This document shows positions 1-8,111 of a stretch of 8,111 nt of DNA, piece after piece; position 1 is the first letter of the stretch; the number at the start of each line of letters is the position of its first letter. The notes below the pieces were generated by a model that did no database searches, was not told where the DNA came from, and was given only the letters and a program-made list of their open reading frames with translations. Source of the DNA: Allobaculum fili (GTDB taxonomy: Bacteria; Bacillota_I; Bacilli_A; Erysipelotrichales; Erysipelotrichaceae); NCBI RefSeq assembly GCF_020969955.1, contig NZ_JAHDSX010000068.1, forward strand, positions 1 through 8,111, in the 5' to 3' direction. The position numbers were made by a program, and so were the translations under genes.

Positions 1-80
1 CCGGAAACATATCGAACCCGGCCGTTAAGCTGCAGAACGCCGACAATAGCCGCAAGGCAAAGATAGGAAGCTGCCAGACA
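1..80 (+). rRNA. rrf: 5S ribosomal RNA, 3' portion (5' end lies upstream of the window)
   Basis: Read by eye against bacterial 5S (e.g. the B. subtilis 5S pattern ...CCGAACACGGAAGTTAAGC...AGCGCCGATGGTAG...AGAGTAGGA.GC.GCCA). The window has CGAACCCGGCCGTTAAGC (13-30), AACGCCGACAATAG (36-49) and AGATAGGAAGCTGCCAG (61-77) in the same order and spacing. A terminator follows immediately. The exact 3' end is +/- a few nt. Confidence 0.8.
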
Positions 81-535: not shown

Positions 536-1696
536 ATGGAAAAACCAAATGTATTTGTACCCCTGGGCGGGGCACAGTCTGTTGGCGACAGCTGCTATTT
601 TGTCCGTATGAATGGTGTGAACATCCTTCTGGATGCGGGTGCTGCAGTTCATGAGGGGCAGATTGAATATCCAGATTATGAATACCTCCTTCGGGCTGGC
701 ATTCTGGAAAGCTTCAGCGAAATCAATCTGATTCTGATTTCCCATGCCCACCTGGATCATTGCCGTGGTTTGCCTGTGCTGACCAATCTGGCAAAAAATG
801 CGGAAATCTGGACGACAGAAACGACATGGAAACTGGTTGAGCTCCAGCTCCAAAGGGGATTTCATCGGGATCTGCATGCTTCCAATCTATGGGTGACGCG
901 GATACAGGAGCGAGTAGAATTTCTGGATTTCATGCAGGAACGAAGTTTTGCCGATCTGAAGATCACGTGCCTCCAGGCTGGCCATATTCCAGGAGCTGCC
1001 ATGTTCTGGATCCAGAGCCGGAATAGCTCTCTGCTGTATACCGGCGATTACAGTCTGAACCAAATGCCGCTTACTGGGTCCGCCATTTTGCCCGAAGATA
1101 TCCATCCGGATGCGCTGATTCTTTGCGGTCTGCATGCACTGGATGAATACAGGTGTACCCGCTCCGGTCTTTCTGGTCTGCTGGGCGCAATTCAAAGCCA
1201 TATTGATGCCGGCGAGGCAGTGAACTGCCTGATTGGGCAGCTCTCCAAAGGGGTAGAGTTTCTCAAAATTATTCTCGATGAAATCGATGGTCTGGAGAAC
1301 ATCTATCTCGATACACGGGTTATGGATACCGTTCATGCGCTCGAGCAGAGCGGGATTCCGATACTGGATAAAAAATGCCGGATGCTGGCTGGGGAAGGAG
1401 ATGACGTTTTCGATGCGCCGCATACCATAACGATTGCCTCCGATTTGCGCTGTTTCCCGTTATACATCGATCCGTGGATAGTGGATTTCACGCTGCATGA
1501 GTCATATCTCCAGATGAAGGAAATTCTAGAGAGGCTCAATGCCGTACAGGTGTTTATCGTTCACTGCGATCCCCGGCGACAGAGCGGCCGGCCGATTGAT
1601 CAGCGCCTTCTCAATGAAGGCAGATGCTTCTCGCAAATCGAAATGCCGCAAAAGAAGGAGATTTTCCTTCTGCCGTTTCAGCCCGCATCCTGCTGA
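536..1696 (+). CDS. Metallo-beta-lactamase fold, beta-CASP family nuclease (RNase J/CPSF-like core, standalone, ~386 aa)
   Basis: ORF 494-1696. I prefer the ATG at 536 because it is preceded by GGAAGAAGGAAGGAA (SD-like) and because beta-CASP proteins start close to the 'PLGGAQSVGDSCY' strand. Motifs in order: LLDAG (motif 1), SHAHLDH (HxHxDH, nt 743-760), AGHIPGAA (motif 3), YTGDY (motif 4), DFTLHES (beta-CASP motif B His), VFIVHCD (motif C His). The upstream ATG at 494 cannot be excluded. Confidence 0.88.
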   Translation: MEKPNVFVPLGGAQSVGDSCYFVRMNGVNILLDAGAAVHEGQIEYPDYEYLLRAGILESFSEINLILISHAHLDHCRGLPVLTNLAKNAEIWTTETTWKLVELQLQRGFHRDLHASNLWVTRIQERVEFLDFMQERSFADLKITCLQAGHIPGAAMFWIQSRNSSLLYTGDYSLNQMPLTGSAILPEDIHPDALILCGLHALDEYRCTRSGLSGLLGAIQSHIDAGEAVNCLIGQLSKGVEFLKIILDEIDGLENIYLDTRVMDTVHALEQSGIPILDKKCRMLAGEGDDVFDAPHTITIASDLRCFPLYIDPWIVDFTLHESYLQMKEILERLNAVQVFIVHCDPRRQSGRPIDQRLLNEGRCFSQIEMPQKKEIFLLPFQPASC

Positions 1697-1817
1697 AAAG
1701 CTGAGAGGAGGTTTCGATCAAGGCGATCGATCTAATTTGAACAGAGCTGATTTTGTCATATCCCGTCCGAGCAGAGCCGTTCAATTCAGCTCGATCAGAC
1801 TTTGACCGTATCTCGGT

Positions 1818-1826
1818 TGGAATATT
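1818..1826 (+). promoter_or_regulatory. Candidate extended -10 element (TGgAATATT) for the 1933-6242 operon
   Basis: TG at 1818-1819, one spacer nt, then AATATT (4/6 to TATAAT). TTGACC at 1802-1807 is only 13 nt upstream, so it is not a proper -35. The call is weak. If real, the tandem array 1857-1926 lies in the 5' leader. Confidence 0.25.
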
Positions 1827-1856
1827 GCCCAAACGCAGAAGTTTGTATGGAAAGAA

Positions 1857-1926
1857 ATTCAGGAAATGAAATTCAGGAAATGAAATTCAGGAAAAGAGAT
1901 TCAGGAAAAGAGATTCAGGAAAGGAA
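1857..1926. repeat. Head-to-tail tandem array, 5 copies of a 14-bp unit (ATTCAGGAAAnnnn)
   Basis: Unit starts at 1857, 1871, 1885, 1899 and 1913, an exact 14-nt period. Copies 1-2 are ATTCAGGAAATGAA, copies 3-4 are ATTCAGGAAAAGAG, and copy 5 is ATTCAGGAAAGGAA. Copy 5 supplies the SD-like AGGAAAGGAAAG just before the ATG at 1933. Confidence 0.97.
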
Positions 1927-1932
1927 AGCCAA

Positions 1933-3279
1933 ATGAGTGACCACAGAAAAACATCCCGCCGCCCGCATAGAAATGTGTCCCGACAGGACGAAAAAAGAGA
2001 AGACGTAAAGCCAAAAAAGAAACCCGTCGAAAAGGAGGGAGAAAAGGCAGCTCGATCCTCACGACAGACTAGACCGGAGACGAATGCGAAAACGAAATCC
2101 TGCCCGAAAAACGAAACCAGAAATCAGGAGAAATCTGAGGGCAATCCAGAAAAGCGAAACGCAGCATCTTCCGCAGTTAGACCTGGCTCTGAGGCGACAG
2201 CCGCTTCGCCTACGGTGCAGGATCAGGTGATCGATAAGCTGCACGAAAAGATTCAAAACCGTCATACCAAAAAGAGAGTCCGTCAGGAGATCAGCAACGA
2301 AAACTGCATGCTCATGGTCTGCCTGCAAAACCCCGGACTGAGTCCGATGCAGATGGTTGAACGGGTGAATACGTATTACGGAACGATGGTTCGCTACGAT
2401 GACGTCCTGGAGTTTTTCCGGGTGCAGAAAATCAATCGGCCAGAAGTTCGCATCGCGATTTTTACGCAGGCAAAACAGAGCGCATCGCTTCTTGAACAGG
2501 CTATGAAAAACGATTTGTCCGCTCTCAATCAGTTCGAAGAAGAAATGAAAAGCCGTTCGAAAGAATTTGGCATTCATCGACAGTTCTTCTCTCGCATCCT
2601 GCTGACGACCTTCTTCCAGAACAATCCAGCCTTTCATAAATATGGCGATGAAGAAGATGTCGCCCTGATGGGCAATACGCTGCAGTTTTATACCCTGCTG
2701 GATTTGATCGATTCCATTCGACAGGCCATCGAAAATCAGGAAGAGGTCGAAAGCGCAGAAGAAAAAACGCTGAAAACCGTACCGGTTCGCGAACTGGAAA
2801 AAGCCAGCCAGAGAATTCGCGAGCTGGAAAGCGCGCTCGAGAGAACCGGCTATCTTCTTTCCGATTTGCAGGATGAATTCGACGCCCAGCTCGAACAGAA
2901 CAAGATTCGGGAAATCGTCGAGTTTTTCTCGCAGCTCAATTCGGAAAAATACGGCTTTTTGCTGGATGAACTGCTGGCCCTGCAAAAAGGCGTCAGCCGT
3001 CTTCGTAAGCAGAAGTACGAAACGCCGCCCGAAATCAGCGGCGTTCTGATCCTCGTTCGAAAACTGATCCAGTTTGTTCAGGACAGTCACATTAATCCGA
3101 TGTTCCGCCTCGATCAGGTGCTCGAAATTACCGCATCTCAGGCCGAGGAAATGGACTACGAAGGCGATCCGTTTCTCGACAATACGATGCTACGGAAAGT
3201 CCAGGTGCTTTCCCCCGGATGGATTTATCAGGATAAGGAAATTCAGATTTCAAGACCAAAAGTGAGGGAAATGAAATGA
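1933..3279 (+). CDS. Hypothetical protein with a GrpE-like C-terminal half. Putative dedicated nucleotide-exchange/adaptor partner of the downstream Hsp70-like ATPase
   Basis: 448-aa ORF with an SD-like purine tract upstream; its stop overlaps the next start (ATGA at 3276-3279). aa 1-120 are K/R/E/S/P-rich low complexity. aa ~283-360 are heptad-like helix (RELEKASQRIRELESALER...DLQDEFDAQLEQNK...EKYGFLLDELLALQKG; compare GrpE AEFENyRkR...EKf..eLLPV.D.L.RA). The C-terminus VQVLSPGWIYQDKEIQISRPKV (nt 3211-3264 cover SPGW...PKV) matches the GrpE beta-domain pattern V..v.qkGY.l..r.iRPa.V. Coding status is confident; the functional call was made by eye. Confidence 0.8.
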   Translation: MSDHRKTSRRPHRNVSRQDEKREDVKPKKKPVEKEGEKAARSSRQTRPETNAKTKSCPKNETRNQEKSEGNPEKRNAASSAVRPGSEATAASPTVQDQVIDKLHEKIQNRHTKKRVRQEISNENCMLMVCLQNPGLSPMQMVERVNTYYGTMVRYDDVLEFFRVQKINRPEVRIAIFTQAKQSASLLEQAMKNDLSALNQFEEEMKSRSKEFGIHRQFFSRILLTTFFQNNPAFHKYGDEEDVALMGNTLQFYTLLDLIDSIRQAIENQEEVESAEEKTLKTVPVRELEKASQRIRELESALERTGYLLSDLQDEFDAQLEQNKIREIVEFFSQLNSEKYGFLLDELLALQKGVSRLRKQKYETPPEISGVLILVRKLIQFVQDSHINPMFRLDQVLEITASQAEEMDYEGDPFLDNTMLRKVQVLSPGWIYQDKEIQISRPKVREMK

Positions 3280-6242
3280 CAAATCAGGCGAATGAACTTT
3301 GTGTCGGCATCGATCTGGGTACGACCAACTCTGTAATTGCGTTTACCAATACGCGCCCAAACGGCGATCTCGTCAGCCGGGTCTTCTCGGCCAGACGAAG
3401 CAACGATGTGTATTATGTGGCCGGTTCCGGGCAGTCGGTTTCCACCGTTCTGGAACCGACGCTGCCCAGCGTTGTGTACTATTCGATGGAAAGCGGCTAT
3501 CAGCCAATAGTCGGCAACTTTGCCCGTCATCAGTATGCGATTCGTCCGCATCTGGTGGCGCGTTCCATCAAAAGCCAGATGGGACAGCCCAGAGTCACCG
3601 GGCTTTCTCCGGATGTTCCGGATGAGACGCCGGCTAAAATTTCCAGCCGGATTCTCAAGCATCTGATCGCGGATATGTCCCGCAAATTCCGCACGCCGAT
3701 CGAAGAAGCGATTATTACCGTTCCGGCTAGCTTTGATGCCATCATGTGCGAAGCCACACGAGAAGCCGCAAGGCTCGCTGGACTTCGGATTTATCAGGAA
3801 GACGGCAGTGAAATGCCGATTCTGCTCTCGGAGCCCAACGCGGTGATTTACGATCTCATCAACCAGATTCGAAACGGGGAAGTACCCTCCTCGCTTCTCG
3901 ATGTTTCTTCGAAAAAGCGCGTTCTGGTCTTTGATCTGGGCGGCGGCACGCTGGATGTTTCCCTGCATGAAATTGAGCAGGATGCGCAAAGCGGTTCGCT
4001 GATGGTGGATGAAGTCGCCACCAACCGCTACACCCGCCTGGGCGGCGATGATTTTGATCGTCTTATTGCGGACGCGATGTATCAGCGTCTCTATACGCAG
4101 TATCACAAGCATCCGGAAATCCAGAATAAAATTGTGCAGCTGAAAGAGCAGATTTATCCGCAGCTGCTTGATAAGGCGGAAGGCTTAAAGCTTTCCGTGA
4201 GCATGGCGCAGGAAGATGTGCTGGGCAGCGGCTGGGGCGATGATGAGGAAGAGGATCTGTATCCGGTCGGCGGCCGAATCAGCACCCTGGGCTACGCGTA
4301 TGATGATTCCTTCACCAGGGAAGAAATAGAAGAAATCCTTTCTCCGCTTATGGGAAAGGATCTGACGATCGATCAGTATCAGAATATGGATACGATCGAA
4401 AATACGAAAAATATAATTTACCCCATTCTGGATGTTTTAAACAAAGCGTCCAGAGATACAGAAGGACCGGTTCCGGTCGATGCAGTCGTGCTGAATGGCG
4501 GCATGTCCAAGTTTTATCTGATCGAATCCCGTCTGGAAGAGTTTTTCGGCTTTAAGCCGATTACCGCAGTGGATCCCGATCAGTCGGTCGCCCGCGGTGC
4601 CGCGATTTATCATTATCTGCTGAAGCACAATCAGATCGCGAAGGGAAAAGGCCAGGTCGAACAGCTGCAGGAAGAAGGACTCGATCGAAAGGAAACGCTC
4701 GGATCCAATCCAGCCGATCCATCGGGTTCCAATGGCTTCGGAGCTTCTGCTGATTCTGAAAATGTGCAGGACGTTTCAAATATGACCTGGACAAATTCTG
4801 GCTCTTCGTCCACAGGTCAAAGCCTGAACGCTTCGGCTGGGTCAGAGCGGACTGCGGGTTTTCGGATTCGCCAGACCAGCATTCTCAATGAGAGTCTGTA
4901 TTTGCAGGGGCAGAATGACATTCATCGAAAAATCATTGAAGCCGGGACAAAGCTTCCGCATGAATCCGCTGTTTTAAACGGATTCATGATTCGAGCCGGT
5001 CAGAACAAGATCGCCATTCCGATTGAACATCGAAGCTACGATGGTTCGTATCGAATCATCGCCAACGGCGTCGTGAATCTGAACACGGTGTATGAGCAGA
5101 ATTTGCACGTGCGTCTGCAGATGAATCTTTCCAGCTCAAAAATCCTTTCCCTTCGTGCCTGGATTGTCGAAAATTCAGACAGCGAGGACGTGCTGGAAGA
5201 AGTTTCAGCACAGCTTTCCGTCTCTGGCGTAGGCCGTTCGGAACCGAAGGGGGCCCCGAAAATGCTTCCAAGTCTGATTTTCCAGAACACCCCAAGAAAA
5301 GTATCGACGGGCAATATGCAGGGAACAGGAACGGTGGATGTTTCCCGGCTTCTTCGAAACATGGAACGGGCTCTGGAATCTATGGATCGAGTGACCCATC
5401 CTGTACAGCGCGGAGAAAAAGTGAAAGAAGCCGCGCGGATCGGCAATCAGATTGCATCCTGCGCCAATAAGAAGGAAGCTGCATTTCCAGTTTTGGCCCT
5501 TCTGAAAAACACGACCAACGGTTTTCTGCGTGAACGGCTGTTCATTATCGCACGAAAGCTTGCTCCGTTCTGGACCGAACGGCAGACCGGCGAACTGGTG
5601 AAGATTGCCAAAGTTTACCTGACCAGTTCTCAATCGTATGGCCCAAAAACACTCAATCGCAATGGAGCGAATATTGAAGCCATTCATACGATCAGCGCAT
5701 GCGGCAAACCGAAGGATGCGCTGGATATTCTGGGAATGGGCTACGAACAGCAGTATCGCAATCCTCTGCTTAACCTTTGCGGTAAGCAGCAGGTCGCCAT
5801 CGACTGGATCAGCCGCTGCTTCTTAGAAGATGCGGATGCGGTATTCCTTCGCAAGCCCTGCAAGATCAGCGAAAGCACGCGTGCTCTGGGCAATGCGCTG
5901 CGCTTAAGTTCCGGACAGCGTGTAGCCATGTCTTCCCGAGACTTTTATATGGAAAAGCTCATCGCTCTGCTGCAGTCCGGATCGCTGTTTGACTTTGAAG
6001 TCGACAGCTGTCTGGTTGCGCTGGGCAGTATCGGCGATCAGCGCTTTGCGGACAATACGGTGGACGAAAAAATGCTCGAACGGGCACGCCGCTGCATTTC
6101 CAGAGTTCCGGACATTTATATCGACGTCCTCGCCACGCGTTTTGACCGCGCCAGAGAAGTCGTTGACATGCTTCTTTCCGGTCAGAAACTGGAGGCGGAT
6201 CAGGAAGCGTATCTTCTGGTTATGCTGGAAGGAAACGACTAG
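3276..6242 (+). CDS. Atypical Hsp70-family ATPase (988 aa): DnaK-like NBD, low-complexity insert, SBD-beta-like region and HEAT-like helical C-terminal domain
   Basis: GAGGGA SD 7 nt upstream of the ATG. Hsp70 motifs in canonical order: GIDLGTTNS (aa 11-19, nt 3306-3332), TLPSVVYY, IITVPASFD, LSEPNAV, VLVFDLGGGTLDVSL (DLGGGTLD at nt 3933-3956), LGGDDFD, VVLNGGMSKFYLIESRLEEFFG, DPDQSVARGAAIY. aa ~451-528 are S/G/N/Q-rich. aa ~529-650 resemble the DnaK linker plus SBD-beta (SILNESLYLQG; IIEAGTKLPHESAV; LHVRLQMNLSSSKILSLRAW). aa ~691-988 are helical with HEAT-like signatures (AIHTISACGKPKDALDIL; RALGNALRLSS; VALGSIGDQR at nt 6015-6044). Confidence 0.95.
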   Translation: MTNQANELCVGIDLGTTNSVIAFTNTRPNGDLVSRVFSARRSNDVYYVAGSGQSVSTVLEPTLPSVVYYSMESGYQPIVGNFARHQYAIRPHLVARSIKSQMGQPRVTGLSPDVPDETPAKISSRILKHLIADMSRKFRTPIEEAIITVPASFDAIMCEATREAARLAGLRIYQEDGSEMPILLSEPNAVIYDLINQIRNGEVPSSLLDVSSKKRVLVFDLGGGTLDVSLHEIEQDAQSGSLMVDEVATNRYTRLGGDDFDRLIADAMYQRLYTQYHKHPEIQNKIVQLKEQIYPQLLDKAEGLKLSVSMAQEDVLGSGWGDDEEEDLYPVGGRISTLGYAYDDSFTREEIEEILSPLMGKDLTIDQYQNMDTIENTKNIIYPILDVLNKASRDTEGPVPVDAVVLNGGMSKFYLIESRLEEFFGFKPITAVDPDQSVARGAAIYHYLLKHNQIAKGKGQVEQLQEEGLDRKETLGSNPADPSGSNGFGASADSENVQDVSNMTWTNSGSSSTGQSLNASAGSERTAGFRIRQTSILNESLYLQGQNDIHRKIIEAGTKLPHESAVLNGFMIRAGQNKIAIPIEHRSYDGSYRIIANGVVNLNTVYEQNLHVRLQMNLSSSKILSLRAWIVENSDSEDVLEEVSAQLSVSGVGRSEPKGAPKMLPSLIFQNTPRKVSTGNMQGTGTVDVSRLLRNMERALESMDRVTHPVQRGEKVKEAARIGNQIASCANKKEAAFPVLALLKNTTNGFLRERLFIIARKLAPFWTERQTGELVKIAKVYLTSSQSYGPKTLNRNGANIEAIHTISACGKPKDALDILGMGYEQQYRNPLLNLCGKQQVAIDWISRCFLEDADAVFLRKPCKISESTRALGNALRLSSGQRVAMSSRDFYMEKLIALLQSGSLFDFEVDSCLVALGSIGDQRFADNTVDEKMLERARRCISRVPDIYIDVLATRFDRAREVVDMLLSGQKLEADQEAYLLVMLEGND

Positions 6243-6369: not shown

Positions 6370-6412
6370 CGCCTGGACTTTACGAACATCGAGAAGATCC
6401 AGGCGCTTTTTT
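6370..6412 (+). terminator. Rho-independent terminator of the Hsp70-like operon
   Basis: CGCCTGGA (6370-6377) pairs with TCCAGGCG (6398-6405), and a CTT/AAG pairing extends the stem into the loop. The stem is followed by C + TTTTTT (6407-6412). The loop is large, hence moderate confidence. Confidence 0.7.
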
Positions 6413-6555: not shown

Positions 6556-7131
6556 ATGGAAAAACTGTATGCCAGTCCCGCTTTTCAAAAAATCGCCATT
6601 GTTCTGATGAAAGTGATCGAAATTCTTTACTGGATCGGATCGATCGGCATGCTGCTTCTCATGCTTTACGGTCTGTTCAATCCAAGTGCTCTGCCTGAGC
6701 TTGCTGCAGGCCTTCGATCCTCCGGTCAGGATCTTGTGATCGGTAGCTACTCGCTCGAAATGAATACCGATACGGCTGCGTTGGCAAACCAGGATCTTGT
6801 TCTGTTTCTGTTTGCGTGCATGCTGATGATGACCATGATCGCGATGATTTTTCGCAATCTCTATCTGATCTTCCGGCGGTCCGAATCCGGTACGCCGTTT
6901 GATTCGGATTCCATTCGCATGATGGGCGAAATTGGGATTTTCTCGATTCTGATTCCCGTTATCGGTCTGCTCTTCAGCGTCATTTTGCGCATCCTTCATT
7001 TCTTTACTTCCGGTACAGCGGTCATGACGGTGTACATGGACGGTATCATTCTTGGCATCATCGTCTTCTTCATTGCCGGCTTCTTTGTTCGAGGCCATCA
7101 GCTTGAAGAAGATGTAGACGGACTGATTTAG
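6556..7131 (+). CDS. DUF2975-type integral membrane protein (4 predicted TM helices)
   Basis: Strong SD (ACAGGAGGAA) upstream. Four hydrophobic segments: IAIVLMKVIEILYWIGSIGMLLLMLYGLF, LVLFLFACMLMMTMIAMIF, IGIFSILIPVIGLLFSVIL, GIILGIIVFFIAGFF. A 'GTPFDSDSIRMMGEIG' loop between TM2 and TM3 is typical of DUF2975. The gene sits immediately upstream of a YozG-type HTH gene, which is the usual pairing. Confidence 0.85.
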   Translation: MEKLYASPAFQKIAIVLMKVIEILYWIGSIGMLLLMLYGLFNPSALPELAAGLRSSGQDLVIGSYSLEMNTDTAALANQDLVLFLFACMLMMTMIAMIFRNLYLIFRRSESGTPFDSDSIRMMGEIGIFSILIPVIGLLFSVILRILHFFTSGTAVMTVYMDGIILGIIVFFIAGFFVRGHQLEEDVDGLI

Positions 7132-7178
7132 TCTGGATTTTTGTTAGACTGAATAGAGAAAACGAGTCAGAAACAGCT

Positions 7179-7427
7179 ATGGGAAAAATCATTCTTCATC
7201 TTGACCGGGTGATGCTCGAGAGGCATATGAGCCTGAATGAACTTGCCAGCCAGGTCGGCATTACCAACGTCAACTTATCCAAAATCAAAAACAATAAAGT
7301 CAATGCGATTCGCTTCAGCACACTCGAAGGGATTTGCAGAGCGCTGAACTGTACGCCCGGCGATCTTCTCGAATACGTACCCGATGAATCTGACGAAGCG
7401 AAACCCAAAGAGATATCGGAAGAGTAA
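7179..7427 (+). CDS. XRE-family helix-turn-helix transcriptional regulator, YozG-like (COG3655 type)
   Basis: 82 aa. LDRVMLERHMSLNELASQVGITNVNLSKIKNNKVNAIRFSTLEGICRALNCTPGDLLEY is the characteristic YozG-family pattern (HTH followed by 'aiRfsTLe.iC.aL.C.PGDlLey'). Acidic C-terminal tail. Confidence 0.9.
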   Translation: MGKIILHLDRVMLERHMSLNELASQVGITNVNLSKIKNNKVNAIRFSTLEGICRALNCTPGDLLEYVPDESDEAKPKEISEE

Positions 7428-7693: not shown

Positions 7694-8111
7694 GTGCTTG
7701 ATATGTGCATGATAATTTTCGAAAAAGCCGGTAATGGGGGTGAGATATCCCCATTATTCGGTGGATAAGTCCGTTTTTTCCGAATTTTGGGCGCACTTAT
7801 CCCAGGGATTTTCCGAAAGCTTAAAAATTCGCTGGATGTTTGACAGAAAGATCGTAACGGCCGCCTGCAGTTTCATTGAATTCAGCCCGCCTCCGCTCGC
7901 CTTACCGTATCCATAGTTCTGTTTAAGCTCGGCATTTTTCGCTTCGATTTTATAACGCTCATGCATCAGTTCCTGGTATTCTTCTGTCTCCATGAACGCC
8001 ATCTGCTCAAGGTGAATATCGCTTTTGATTTTGACGGAGTAGCTTTTTGATTTTGCTCCTTCTTTGTAGCACCCTTCTTTGAGCGGACAGTGTTTACAGC
8101 GCTCTACATCG
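7694..8111 (-). mobile_element. Partial insertion sequence (IS1182/IS5-like). The inner boundary is not determinable from this window
   Basis: Inferred from the transposase fragment. The other IS end is not in the window, so the terminal inverted repeat cannot be identified. The boundary is placed arbitrarily just outside the 7653-7693 hairpin and could lie anywhere between ~7450 and 7753. Confidence 0.35.
7754..8111 (-). CDS. IS1182/IS5-like DDE transposase, C-terminal part (N-terminus beyond the window edge)
   Basis: The minus-strand frame is open from the window edge: DVERCKHCPLKEGCYKEGAKSKSYSVKIKSDIHLEQMAFMETEEYQELMHERYKIEAKNAELKQNYGYGKASGGGLNSMKLQAAVTIFLSNIQRIFKL. The CxxCPL..C cluster followed by Y..R..IE..n.elK...G...a...GL......Q......N+.RI is the typical C-terminus of IS1182-family (DDE_Tnp_1_6-like) transposases. 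The listed ORF 7754-8002 is only the Met-initiated tail of this frame. Confidence 0.85.
   Translation of the reverse strand, partial: DVERCKHCPLKEGCYKEGAKSKSYSVKIKSDIHLEQMAFMETEEYQELMHERYKIEAKNAELKQNYGYGKASGGGLNSMKLQAAVTIFLSNIQRIFKLSENPWDKCAQNSEKTDLSTE

Follow-up and report, generated by a model that had tools for sequence, protein, structure and literature searches.

We describe here a conserved set of three genes, g1, g2 and g3, found in an 8,111-nucleotide stretch of the genome of Allobaculum fili (contig NZ_JAHDSX010000068.1), the whole of which is referred to below as the window. The first gene encodes a putative beta-CASP nuclease of the metallo-beta-lactamase (MBL) fold, the second a protein with a GrpE-like domain, and the third a predicted Hsp70-type ATPase that ends in a HEAT/ARM-like alpha-solenoid. 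Gene order and strand were the same in 80 of 80 loci found through g2, and clustering of all open reading frames (ORFs) in these loci left g1, g2 and g3 as the only genes in common, with no conserved fourth gene. We propose, with chances that we rate as about even, that the trio forms one self-contained, ATP-driven nuclease machine, scaffolded, gated by an Hsp70 cycle and probably directed at RNA. No description of this trio was found in a search of the literature, and the combination of Hsp70/GrpE machinery with a module of a nucleoside triphosphatase (NTPase) plus a nuclease is hitherto undescribed.

Linkage and distribution of the three genes

An earlier reading of this DNA, made from the sequence alone, held that the three genes are one module. 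Conserved linkage and the lack of a match to a named system had been set beforehand as tests of this reading, and the module passed both. A scan of 185,579 species genomes with an alignment of g2 detected the gene in 106, and 80 loci were kept. Within them g1 was detected in 74 and g3 in 79, the exceptions being loci where the contig ends, and since the trio is conserved in order and strand across all 80, a chance association is excluded. The module also emerged from other starting points. The trio was present for five of the five g3 homologues looked up, on which the linkage from the g3 side rests, and for five of five divergent representatives of g2. Furthermore, g2 and g3 overlap or abut in many loci, and in one divergent locus (L094, 4675-6873) g1 and g2 are fused in frame into a protein of 732 amino acids (aa; P0294), followed by the Hsp70 gene; the fusion is seen on a single contig, where loss of a stop codon by sequencing error is possible.

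The g2 family amounts to 361 clusters at 50% identity in a search of 1.84 billion representatives, and the trio occurs in more than 80 bacterial species of the gut, rumen and mouth. Its hosts include Lachnospiraceae (Lachnoanaerobaculum orale, L. saburreum) and Selenomonadaceae (Megamonas, Quinella), as well as Phascolarctobacterium, Treponema and Epulonipiscioides.

The beta-CASP protein g1

Searches with the single sequence and with a family profile confirm the earlier assignment of g1 to the beta-CASP group, as a putative nuclease of the CPSF73/IntS11 type. With phmmer, the window protein alone matched IntS11 (8.7e-25) and CPSF73 (1.4e-23) in the PDB. A profile of 32 orthologues, searched against the same database, matched the eukaryotic enzymes CPSF73 (1.1e-47), IntS11 (2e-45), Ysh1 (4e-41) and Artemis (2.5e-12), and the prokaryotic enzymes aCPSF1 of archaea (1e-37), Cas14 (4e-28), TTHA0252 (2e-24) and RNase J (5e-13). 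The protein is thus nearer to the eukaryotic and archaeal CPSF73 clade than to TTHA0252 or RNase J. With these last two it has the fold and the metal-binding motifs in common, but it lacks the C-terminal domain of RNase J and carries a cysteine instead of Asp or Glu at motif A. The alignment to CPSF73 runs through the beta-CASP insertion (residues 4-299 of g1 with 11-304 of CPSF73, and 300-351 with 374-424), which is about 70 residues shorter in g1. In Pfam, the window protein matches Lactamase_B families only, and the Beta-Casp and RMMBL models give no match.

The four MBL motifs (D33, H70-x-H72-x-D74-H75, H150 and D171, in the numbering of the 386-aa protein) are invariant in the 32 orthologues and line up with their CPSF73 counterparts. 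The histidines of motif B (H321) and motif C (H343) are also invariant in this alignment. Among beta-CASP enzymes, motif A is an Asp or Glu, and motif C is a histidine in those acting on RNA and a valine in those acting on DNA; Callebaut and co-workers are said to have described in 2002 how a histidine at motif C marks the RNA-cleaving branch.

The GrpE-like protein g2

The proposal that g2 is GrpE-like proved to be undetectable in the window protein alone and is supported by the profile of its family. Taken singly, g2 had no match in Pfam, NCBIfam, PADLOC or, with phmmer, the PDB, and hmmsearch of a 39-sequence profile against the PDB returned no GrpE, the only matches being insignificant ones to MukF. 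An earlier hhalign comparison with GrpE, using a shallow profile, was weak (P 0.02). With a profile of 231 sequences against five GrpE sequences, hhalign gave a probability of 77%, a P of 2e-5 and 142 collinear columns, which join residues 291-444 of g2 to 40-192 of E. coli GrpE; the reversed control gave a P of 0.13. Sub-threshold matches to the Pfam GrpE family (PF01025) were found in 8 of 39 family members. They were also found in the C-terminal half of six out of ten divergent members, four of them collinear over positions 5-156 of the 165 in the model. The AlphaFold2 model of g2 (mean predicted local distance difference test score, pLDDT, 79.6) has a long helix at residues 283-335 (53 residues), two further helices at 338-359 and 366-384, and strands between 387 and 446. 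This predicted succession of a long helix, two bundle helices and a small beta domain is the layout of GrpE. On these grounds we accept the C-terminal ~165 residues of g2 as a probable remote homologue of GrpE, not as a family member by the curated threshold. Adjacency and translational coupling to g3 are suggestive of g2 being the exchange factor for g3.

The rest of g2 is not found in GrpE. In the model, residues 95-277 form an all-helical domain of nine helices, with block-mean pLDDT of ~73-97 and mostly above 90. This N-domain behaves as a modular binding unit: in five proteins of 540-590 aa from several lineages (P0254, P0296, P0317, P0346 and P0358) it is duplicated in tandem ahead of the GrpE-like part. 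Two family members show weak matches to HTH_Tnp_Tc3_2 (the best at 6e-4). Triggering of ATP hydrolysis and binding of nucleic acid are candidate functions for this domain. The N-terminal extension that precedes it is basic and of low complexity, has a pLDDT below 50 across nearly all of residues 1-90, and is absent from most of 38 aligned homologues; family members are typically ~360 aa long. A J-domain hidden in g2 was also considered and was ruled out (hhalign P 0.25, no conserved HPD motif).

The Hsp70-like protein g3

The nucleotide-binding domain (NBD) of g3 matches Pfam HSP70 (PF00012, 4e-35), the NCBIfam models for HscA (4e-41) and DnaK (1e-35), and the NBD of DnaK in the PDB (5e-21). 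The ATPase motifs reported in the earlier reading are intact. Across 24 homologues, D13, T16-T17, K99, E186, D220-G-G-G-T-L-D227 and G256-G-D-D-F-D261 do not vary, except for L221 and for D259, the latter being conserved in at least 90% of them. The catalytic Asp, Lys, Glu and Thr residues (D13, K99, E186, D220, T225 and D227) are all among the unvarying ones. From these residues the NBD is predicted to be a catalytically competent Hsp70-type ATPase. It is followed by an insertion whose length differs by tens of residues among homologues, and then by the motif ILN(D/E)SLYL, in which I536, L537, N538, L541, Y542 and L543 are invariant. The motif occupies the position of the interdomain linker of DnaK, whose counterpart we take to be VLLLDVTPLSLG.

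The C-terminal half was modelled from residue 530 to 988 with AlphaFold2 (mean pLDDT 84.4). Residues 536-650 form eight strands (block-mean pLDDT ~80-90), and these are followed by a disordered stretch and then by about 16 helices. In Foldseek searches the beta domain matched the substrate-binding domain (SBD) of E. coli DnaK at 1.9e-4, Mycoplasma genitalium DnaK lacking SBD-alpha with a root-mean-square deviation (rmsd) of 4.6 A over 123 columns, and the SBD-beta of Ssa1 with an rmsd of 4.7 A over 119 columns. Compared by hhalign with one DnaK SBD sequence, the C-terminal half gave no significant match, and because of this the call of a predicted SBD-beta domain rests on the structure model. 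The helices matched importin alpha and beta, importin-4, designed helical repeats and IntS4 with Foldseek probabilities of 0.9-1.0. For IntS4, a component of the Integrator cleavage module, the values were E 0.038 and a query TM-score (TMq) of 0.38 for 7sn8_D, and a TMq of 0.39 for 7pks_d. The models thus support a predicted architecture of NBD, SBD-beta and a HEAT/ARM-like solenoid of ~300 residues in the position of the lid (SBD-alpha). The HEAT-type tail proposed earlier is borne out by the model and its fold matches. The description of the C-terminus as non-chaperone-like holds in part only: the lid appears to be replaced by the solenoid, while the SBD-beta ahead of the solenoid had been missed, and g3 is a more complete Hsp70 than had been read.

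One divergent lineage (L095, 2914-5091) has a shorter linked Hsp70-like protein, of just 725 aa, and part of the solenoid may be dispensable or encoded elsewhere there.

Comparison with known systems

The earlier statement that no described system has this composition holds for the sources searched: PADLOC gave no significant match and the literature searched contained none. The architecture of g3 does have a computational precedent, of which the earlier reading was unaware. In type III CoCoNuT systems, which are McrBC-like, CnuD and CnuCD combine an Hsp70-like NBD and SBD with HEAT-like repeats in one polypeptide, encoded beside nucleases, and RNA targeting was predicted computationally (Bell et al., eLife 2024, PMC11090510). 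Compared with CnuD as published, g3 has the same combination of an Hsp70 NBD and SBD with HEAT-like repeats in one protein. However, CnuD is always accompanied by a McrB-type NxD GTPase (CnuB) and a homologue of McrC/DUF2357 (CnuC), neither of which occurs in the window or is shared among the 80 loci. The Walker A-like motif of CnuD is degenerate, with poor ATP hydrolysis predicted, whereas g3 keeps the Hsp70 catalytic residues. Furthermore, the CoCoNuT nucleases are of the HEPN or PD-(D/E)xK type, not beta-CASP, and GrpE is unmentioned in that paper (PMC11090510). A dedicated Hsp70 and GrpE pair in a non-housekeeping operon has also been described, in the GAP1-N2 GTPase conflict systems of Firmicutes and Actinobacteria (Kaur et al., eLife 2020, PMC7159879). 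The pair is what the trio has in common with them. GAP1-N2 systems are centred on GTPases with FNIII/DnaJ or TPR proteins and have no beta-CASP nuclease, and the trio has no linked GTPase, FNIII or DnaJ gene.

The canonical DnaK-GrpE pair resembles the trio in the order of a grpE-like gene followed by an hsp70-like gene, in the intact NBD motifs and SBD-beta, and in the GrpE layout collinear with residues 40-192 of the E. coli protein. Unlike that pair, the trio comes without a J-protein gene and without a CIRCE/HrcA operator, and it is strictly linked to a nuclease gene. The proteins differ as well: g3 has a solenoid in place of the lid, and an insertion of variable length, tens of residues long, sets its NBD apart from the linker motif, while g2 has an additional helical domain of ~180 residues and a Pfam GrpE score below threshold.

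Likeness of another kind is found in the eukaryotic modules CPSF73-CPSF100-symplekin and IntS11-IntS9-IntS4: CPSF73 and IntS11 are the closest characterised relatives of g1, and Foldseek matched the g3 solenoid, among other folds, to IntS4 in structures of the Integrator cleavage module. Unlike these modules, the trio has no pseudo-nuclease of the CPSF100/IntS9 type, and the scaffold in g3 is fused to an Hsp70 ATPase. We would regard the likeness as an analogy of logic, not a homology of complexes.

Proposed mechanism

In the eukaryotic modules, CPSF73 is held and activated by symplekin and IntS11 by IntS4, both of them HEAT proteins. Along parallel lines, g1, g2 and g3 would form a physical complex in which the solenoid of g3, its SBD-beta or both would hold the g1 nuclease. 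The g2 protein would be a dedicated nucleotide-exchange factor that resets the ATP/ADP cycle of g3, and the nucleotide cycle of the NBD would switch the complex between states, either by loading and releasing substrate or by opening the active site of g1. The effector would be g1 and its most likely substrate RNA. A bolder version, which we hold to be rather doubtful, makes the trio a bacterial counterpart of the CPSF/Integrator module, with the nuclease carried on the HEAT-like tail of an Hsp70 motor, cleavage gated by ATP/ADP and the reset provided by the GrpE-like protein. In Lachnospiraceae, Selenomonadaceae and gut Treponema, such a counterpart could have a part in RNA surveillance or in the processing of RNA 3' ends.

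Several observations weigh against the proposal of a nuclease machine. At motif A of g1 (window positions 1123-1137) the invariant Cys197 stands where CPSF73 has Glu204, so that no acidic residue is present and the catalytic competence of g1 is not assured. This cysteine belongs to a conserved Cys-Gly-Leu-His (C197-G-L-H200; G198, L199 and H200 are each conserved in at least 90% of the 32 sequences), which may bind a further metal ion, act in redox chemistry or represent a catalytic variant peculiar to this family. For g2, the homology to GrpE is remote: the best member scored 18.7 bits against the Pfam GrpE gathering score of 25.8, and Foldseek of the whole model against the PDB gave nothing significant, with globins and AhpD listed at E above 0.1 and GrpE unlisted; we deem this search uninformative because the N-domain dominates it. 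The HEAT/ARM likeness of g3 is generic, IntS4 being one of many solenoid matches with E above 0.01. No J-domain or conserved HPD motif, the expected trigger of ATP hydrolysis, was found in g1, g2 or g3. The distribution is patchy, with the family detected in 106 of 185,579 species genomes spread over three phyla, a pattern that is typical of accessory and conflict systems too. Finally, two divergent loci have neighbours related to defence: in L093 (65-4897) the trio lies directly 3' of cas4-cas1-cas2, the sole CRISPR adjacency seen, and in L094 a ResIII/RE_endonuc gene of type III restriction lies 5' of it.

Genomic context and alternative explanations

The last two points bear on the alternative that survives best, that of an anti-phage or conflict system in which the Hsp70-like protein would be the sensor of a phage product such as a protein, an RNA or a misfolding signal, the GrpE-like protein would set the threshold and the nuclease would destroy RNA of the invader or the host. 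It would be in keeping with the HEAT-bearing CnuD of the predicted RNA-targeting CoCoNuT systems and with the Hsp70 and GrpE of the GAP1-N2 systems. Beta-CASP nucleases are also known in defence, Cas14 of type VII CRISPR being an example, and the 3' flank of the trio differs between close relatives. The genomic context argues in the other direction. The earlier reading had named enrichment in defence islands as something to check, and the context leans away from such islands. A census took in the two genes closest to the trio on either side, 227 proteins from 80 genomes. These neighbours were mostly housekeeping or metabolic, and PADLOC recognised among them only one restriction-modification pair, one TnpB, one Csx1 and a few kinases. 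The commonest flanking families are TatC, TauE, tRNA synthetases, DNA polymerase III and pantothenate genes. In Selenomonadaceae, TatC lies 5' of the trio in 17 loci, and TauE (12 loci) and an AMP-binding enzyme (8 loci) lie 3' of it; elsewhere the trio is set among proS-dnaE-yajQ, serS-ftsW and pantothenate genes, or a pseudouridine synthase and recU. Synteny is stable within Selenomonadaceae and within Lachnoanaerobaculum. No copy was found on 72,556 plasmids, on 50,697 phages or on IMG/VR contigs. With PADLOC-DB 2.0 the window proteins themselves gave nothing significant, the best matches being PDC-M61B (2e-4, over 73 residues of the NBD) and RTasMBL (0.011). Furthermore, the effector is constant, always the same MBL nuclease, whereas conflict systems usually swap their effectors. 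Taken together, we consider defence unlikely, with a real minority chance of being correct. Because of this context we favour a physiological role for chromosomal genes passed on vertically, such as the processing, decay or quality control of RNA, over a classical mobile anti-phage one, and this is the least certain part of our proposal.

Alternatively, the Hsp70-like protein and its exchange factor could be a dedicated chaperone that folds, metallates or assembles the MBL enzyme as its client, as HscA and HscB do for IscU. The HscA models are the best NCBIfam matches of g3, slightly above DnaK, the SBD-beta is kept, and the unusual Cys-x-x-His at motif A of g1 is a possible additional metal site. 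A simple folding role would leave the 300-residue solenoid and the N-domain of g2 unexplained, and no J-domain co-chaperone was found, though HscA requires HscB. The g1-g2 fusion is easier to reconcile with a stable complex than with a transient client, and we know of no other beta-CASP enzyme that needs a dedicated chaperone. We therefore regard this explanation as quite improbable. A small-molecule or cyclic-nucleotide phosphodiesterase activity of g1, with the Hsp70 pair engaged in unrelated signalling, is suggested by the missing acid of motif A and by the family Anti-Pycsar_Apyc1 (PF23023; MBL-fold cyclic-nucleotide phosphodiesterases) among the precomputed Pfam matches of g1 orthologues, but it is highly improbable, given that simple MBL phosphodiesterases have neither the beta-CASP insertion nor motifs B and C, that the nuclease profile matches run through these elements and are far stronger (1e-47), and that lactonases and other simple MBL hydrolases reach only ~1e-9.

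Locus layout and neighbouring features

The features of the window are collected in the table below. As had been read from the sequence, the three genes lie on the same strand between two strong terminator hairpins, and the stop codon of g2 and the start codon of g3 share an ATGA at 3276-3279. The start of g1 at 536 is the one chosen by gene callers in three other samples, and orthologue alignments also begin there.

Table. Genes, protein domains and signals of the window
Feature	Position	Strand	Remarks
Probable 5S rRNA, 3' three-quarters	1-79	+	5'-truncated by the window start; outside the module
Intrinsic terminator closing the upstream unit	85-140 (hairpin 85-132)	+	Hairpin and U-run; fold
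g1	536-1696	+	386 aa; full ORF 494-1696
14-nucleotide tandem repeat AAAGAAATTCAGGA	1851-1927	+	5.5 copies; Tandem Repeats Finder (TRF) score 119; directly 5' of the g2 start
g2	1933-3279	+	448 aa
g2 residues 1-94, basic low-complexity N-terminal extension	1933-2214	+	Predicted disordered; lineage-specific
g2 residues 95-277, predicted family-specific all-helical N-domain	2215-2763	+	AlphaFold2
g2 residues 283-448, GrpE-like domain	2779-3279	+	hhalign, sub-threshold Pfam, predicted topology
g3	3276-6242	+	988 aa
g3 residues 1-452, predicted Hsp70 NBD with all catalytic motifs	3276-4631	+	Pfam, NCBIfam, PDB
g3 residues 453-535, variable low-complexity insertion	4632-4880	+	Alignment
g3 residues 536-650, predicted Hsp70 SBD-beta	4881-5225	+	AlphaFold2, Foldseek
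g3 residues 689-988, predicted HEAT/ARM-like alpha-solenoid, ~16 helices	5340-6242	+	AlphaFold2, pLDDT mostly >90
Intrinsic terminator closing the three-gene unit	6370-6412 (hairpin 6370-6405)	+	Fold, followed by UUUUUU

The hairpin at 85-132 has a folding free energy (dG) of -29 kcal/mol and a z-score of -6.4, and none of 200 shuffled sequences was as stable; that at 6370-6405 has a dG of -20.1 kcal/mol and a z-score of -5.3. The 236 nucleotides between g1 and g2 had been thought free of a convincing terminator. The gap, which also contains the tandem repeat, has a single weak terminator-like site (1714-1730) and an unremarkable fold (z -0.7), and a terminator within it was ruled out. In most relatives this gap is 20-100 nucleotides, the long gap here being lineage-specific, and the short gap elsewhere strengthens the case for co-transcription of g1, g2 and g3, which is likely.

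The upstream hairpin had been assigned to an rRNA operon. The hairpin itself is strong, as described above, and its assignment is plausible, but its origin from an rRNA operon is unproven because the 5S rRNA match is sub-threshold: bases 1-79 align with model positions 29-120 of Rfam RF00001 at 17.4 bits (gathering score 38; E 0.19), and at the gathering threshold Rfam gave no 5S rRNA match there. The same neighbourhood had been taken as a hint of a role in RNA maturation. In 10 other genomes no rRNA was found in the vicinity of the trio, and its flanking genes differ by clade, which rules out a functional tie to the rRNA operon. The rRNA-operon neighbour is incidental and peculiar to this organism, and for this reason it is no argument for rRNA maturation.

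Each unit of the tandem repeat AAAGAAATTCAGGA holds a Shine-Dalgarno-like AGGA, and the repeat could tune the translation of g2 and g3. Its copy number differs between populations, since in three further samples of this organism (L087-L089) the repeat is one unit shorter. About 70 nucleotides 5' of g1, at 422-469, a 13-nucleotide inverted repeat (TACCGAAATACGA / TCGTATTTCCGTA; 92% complementary, arms 22 nucleotides apart) could act as an operator or fold into an RNA hairpin. Heat-shock regulation of the trio was ruled out, no CIRCE element having been found. In one Lachnospiraceae genome (L010, 11415-11588) a Clostridiales-1 small RNA (Rfam RF01699, 101.8 bits) lies just 3' of the trio.

On the 3' side of the trio in the window is a two-gene cassette (6556-7427), composed of g4, a multi-pass membrane protein of 191 aa with a weak DUF2975 match (E 0.01), and g5, an 82-aa regulator of the Cro/C1-type helix-turn-helix family HTH_26 (3e-24). 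The cassette is not linked to the trio in any other genome, and g4 and g5 were ruled out as members of the module since they are never conserved with it. Near the window end, a DDE transposase fragment (DDE_Tnp_1_6, 2.9e-6) lies on the minus strand at 7754-8002; in one other sample (L087, 6578-8116) the gene called on the transposase strand is 512 aa and reaches the contig end. All contigs of this organism stop at the 5S/terminator end on one side and at the transposase on the other, which suggests that assemblies break at repeats.

Implications

Hsp70 is among the best-studied of molecular machines, and we found no description of an Hsp70 that is hard-wired, together with a private GrpE-type factor, to a nuclease. 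The family is sizeable, and its hosts are abundant in the gut, rumen and mouth. If the trio is a defence system instead of the nuclease machine proposed here, it would represent a class of Hsp70-based sensors in bacterial immunity and would provide a handle on the computationally predicted CnuD. If the proposal of a nuclease machine is correct, and an ATPase cycle does gate a CPSF73-like RNase, the roles of Hsp70 would reach from protein folding to the control of nucleic-acid cleavage, with Hsp70 used as an allosteric nuclease switch and not as a folding chaperone. The trio would then provide a three-protein bacterial model for the activation of beta-CASP nucleases by HEAT scaffolds, which is central to the 3'-end processing of mRNA and snRNA in eukaryotes.

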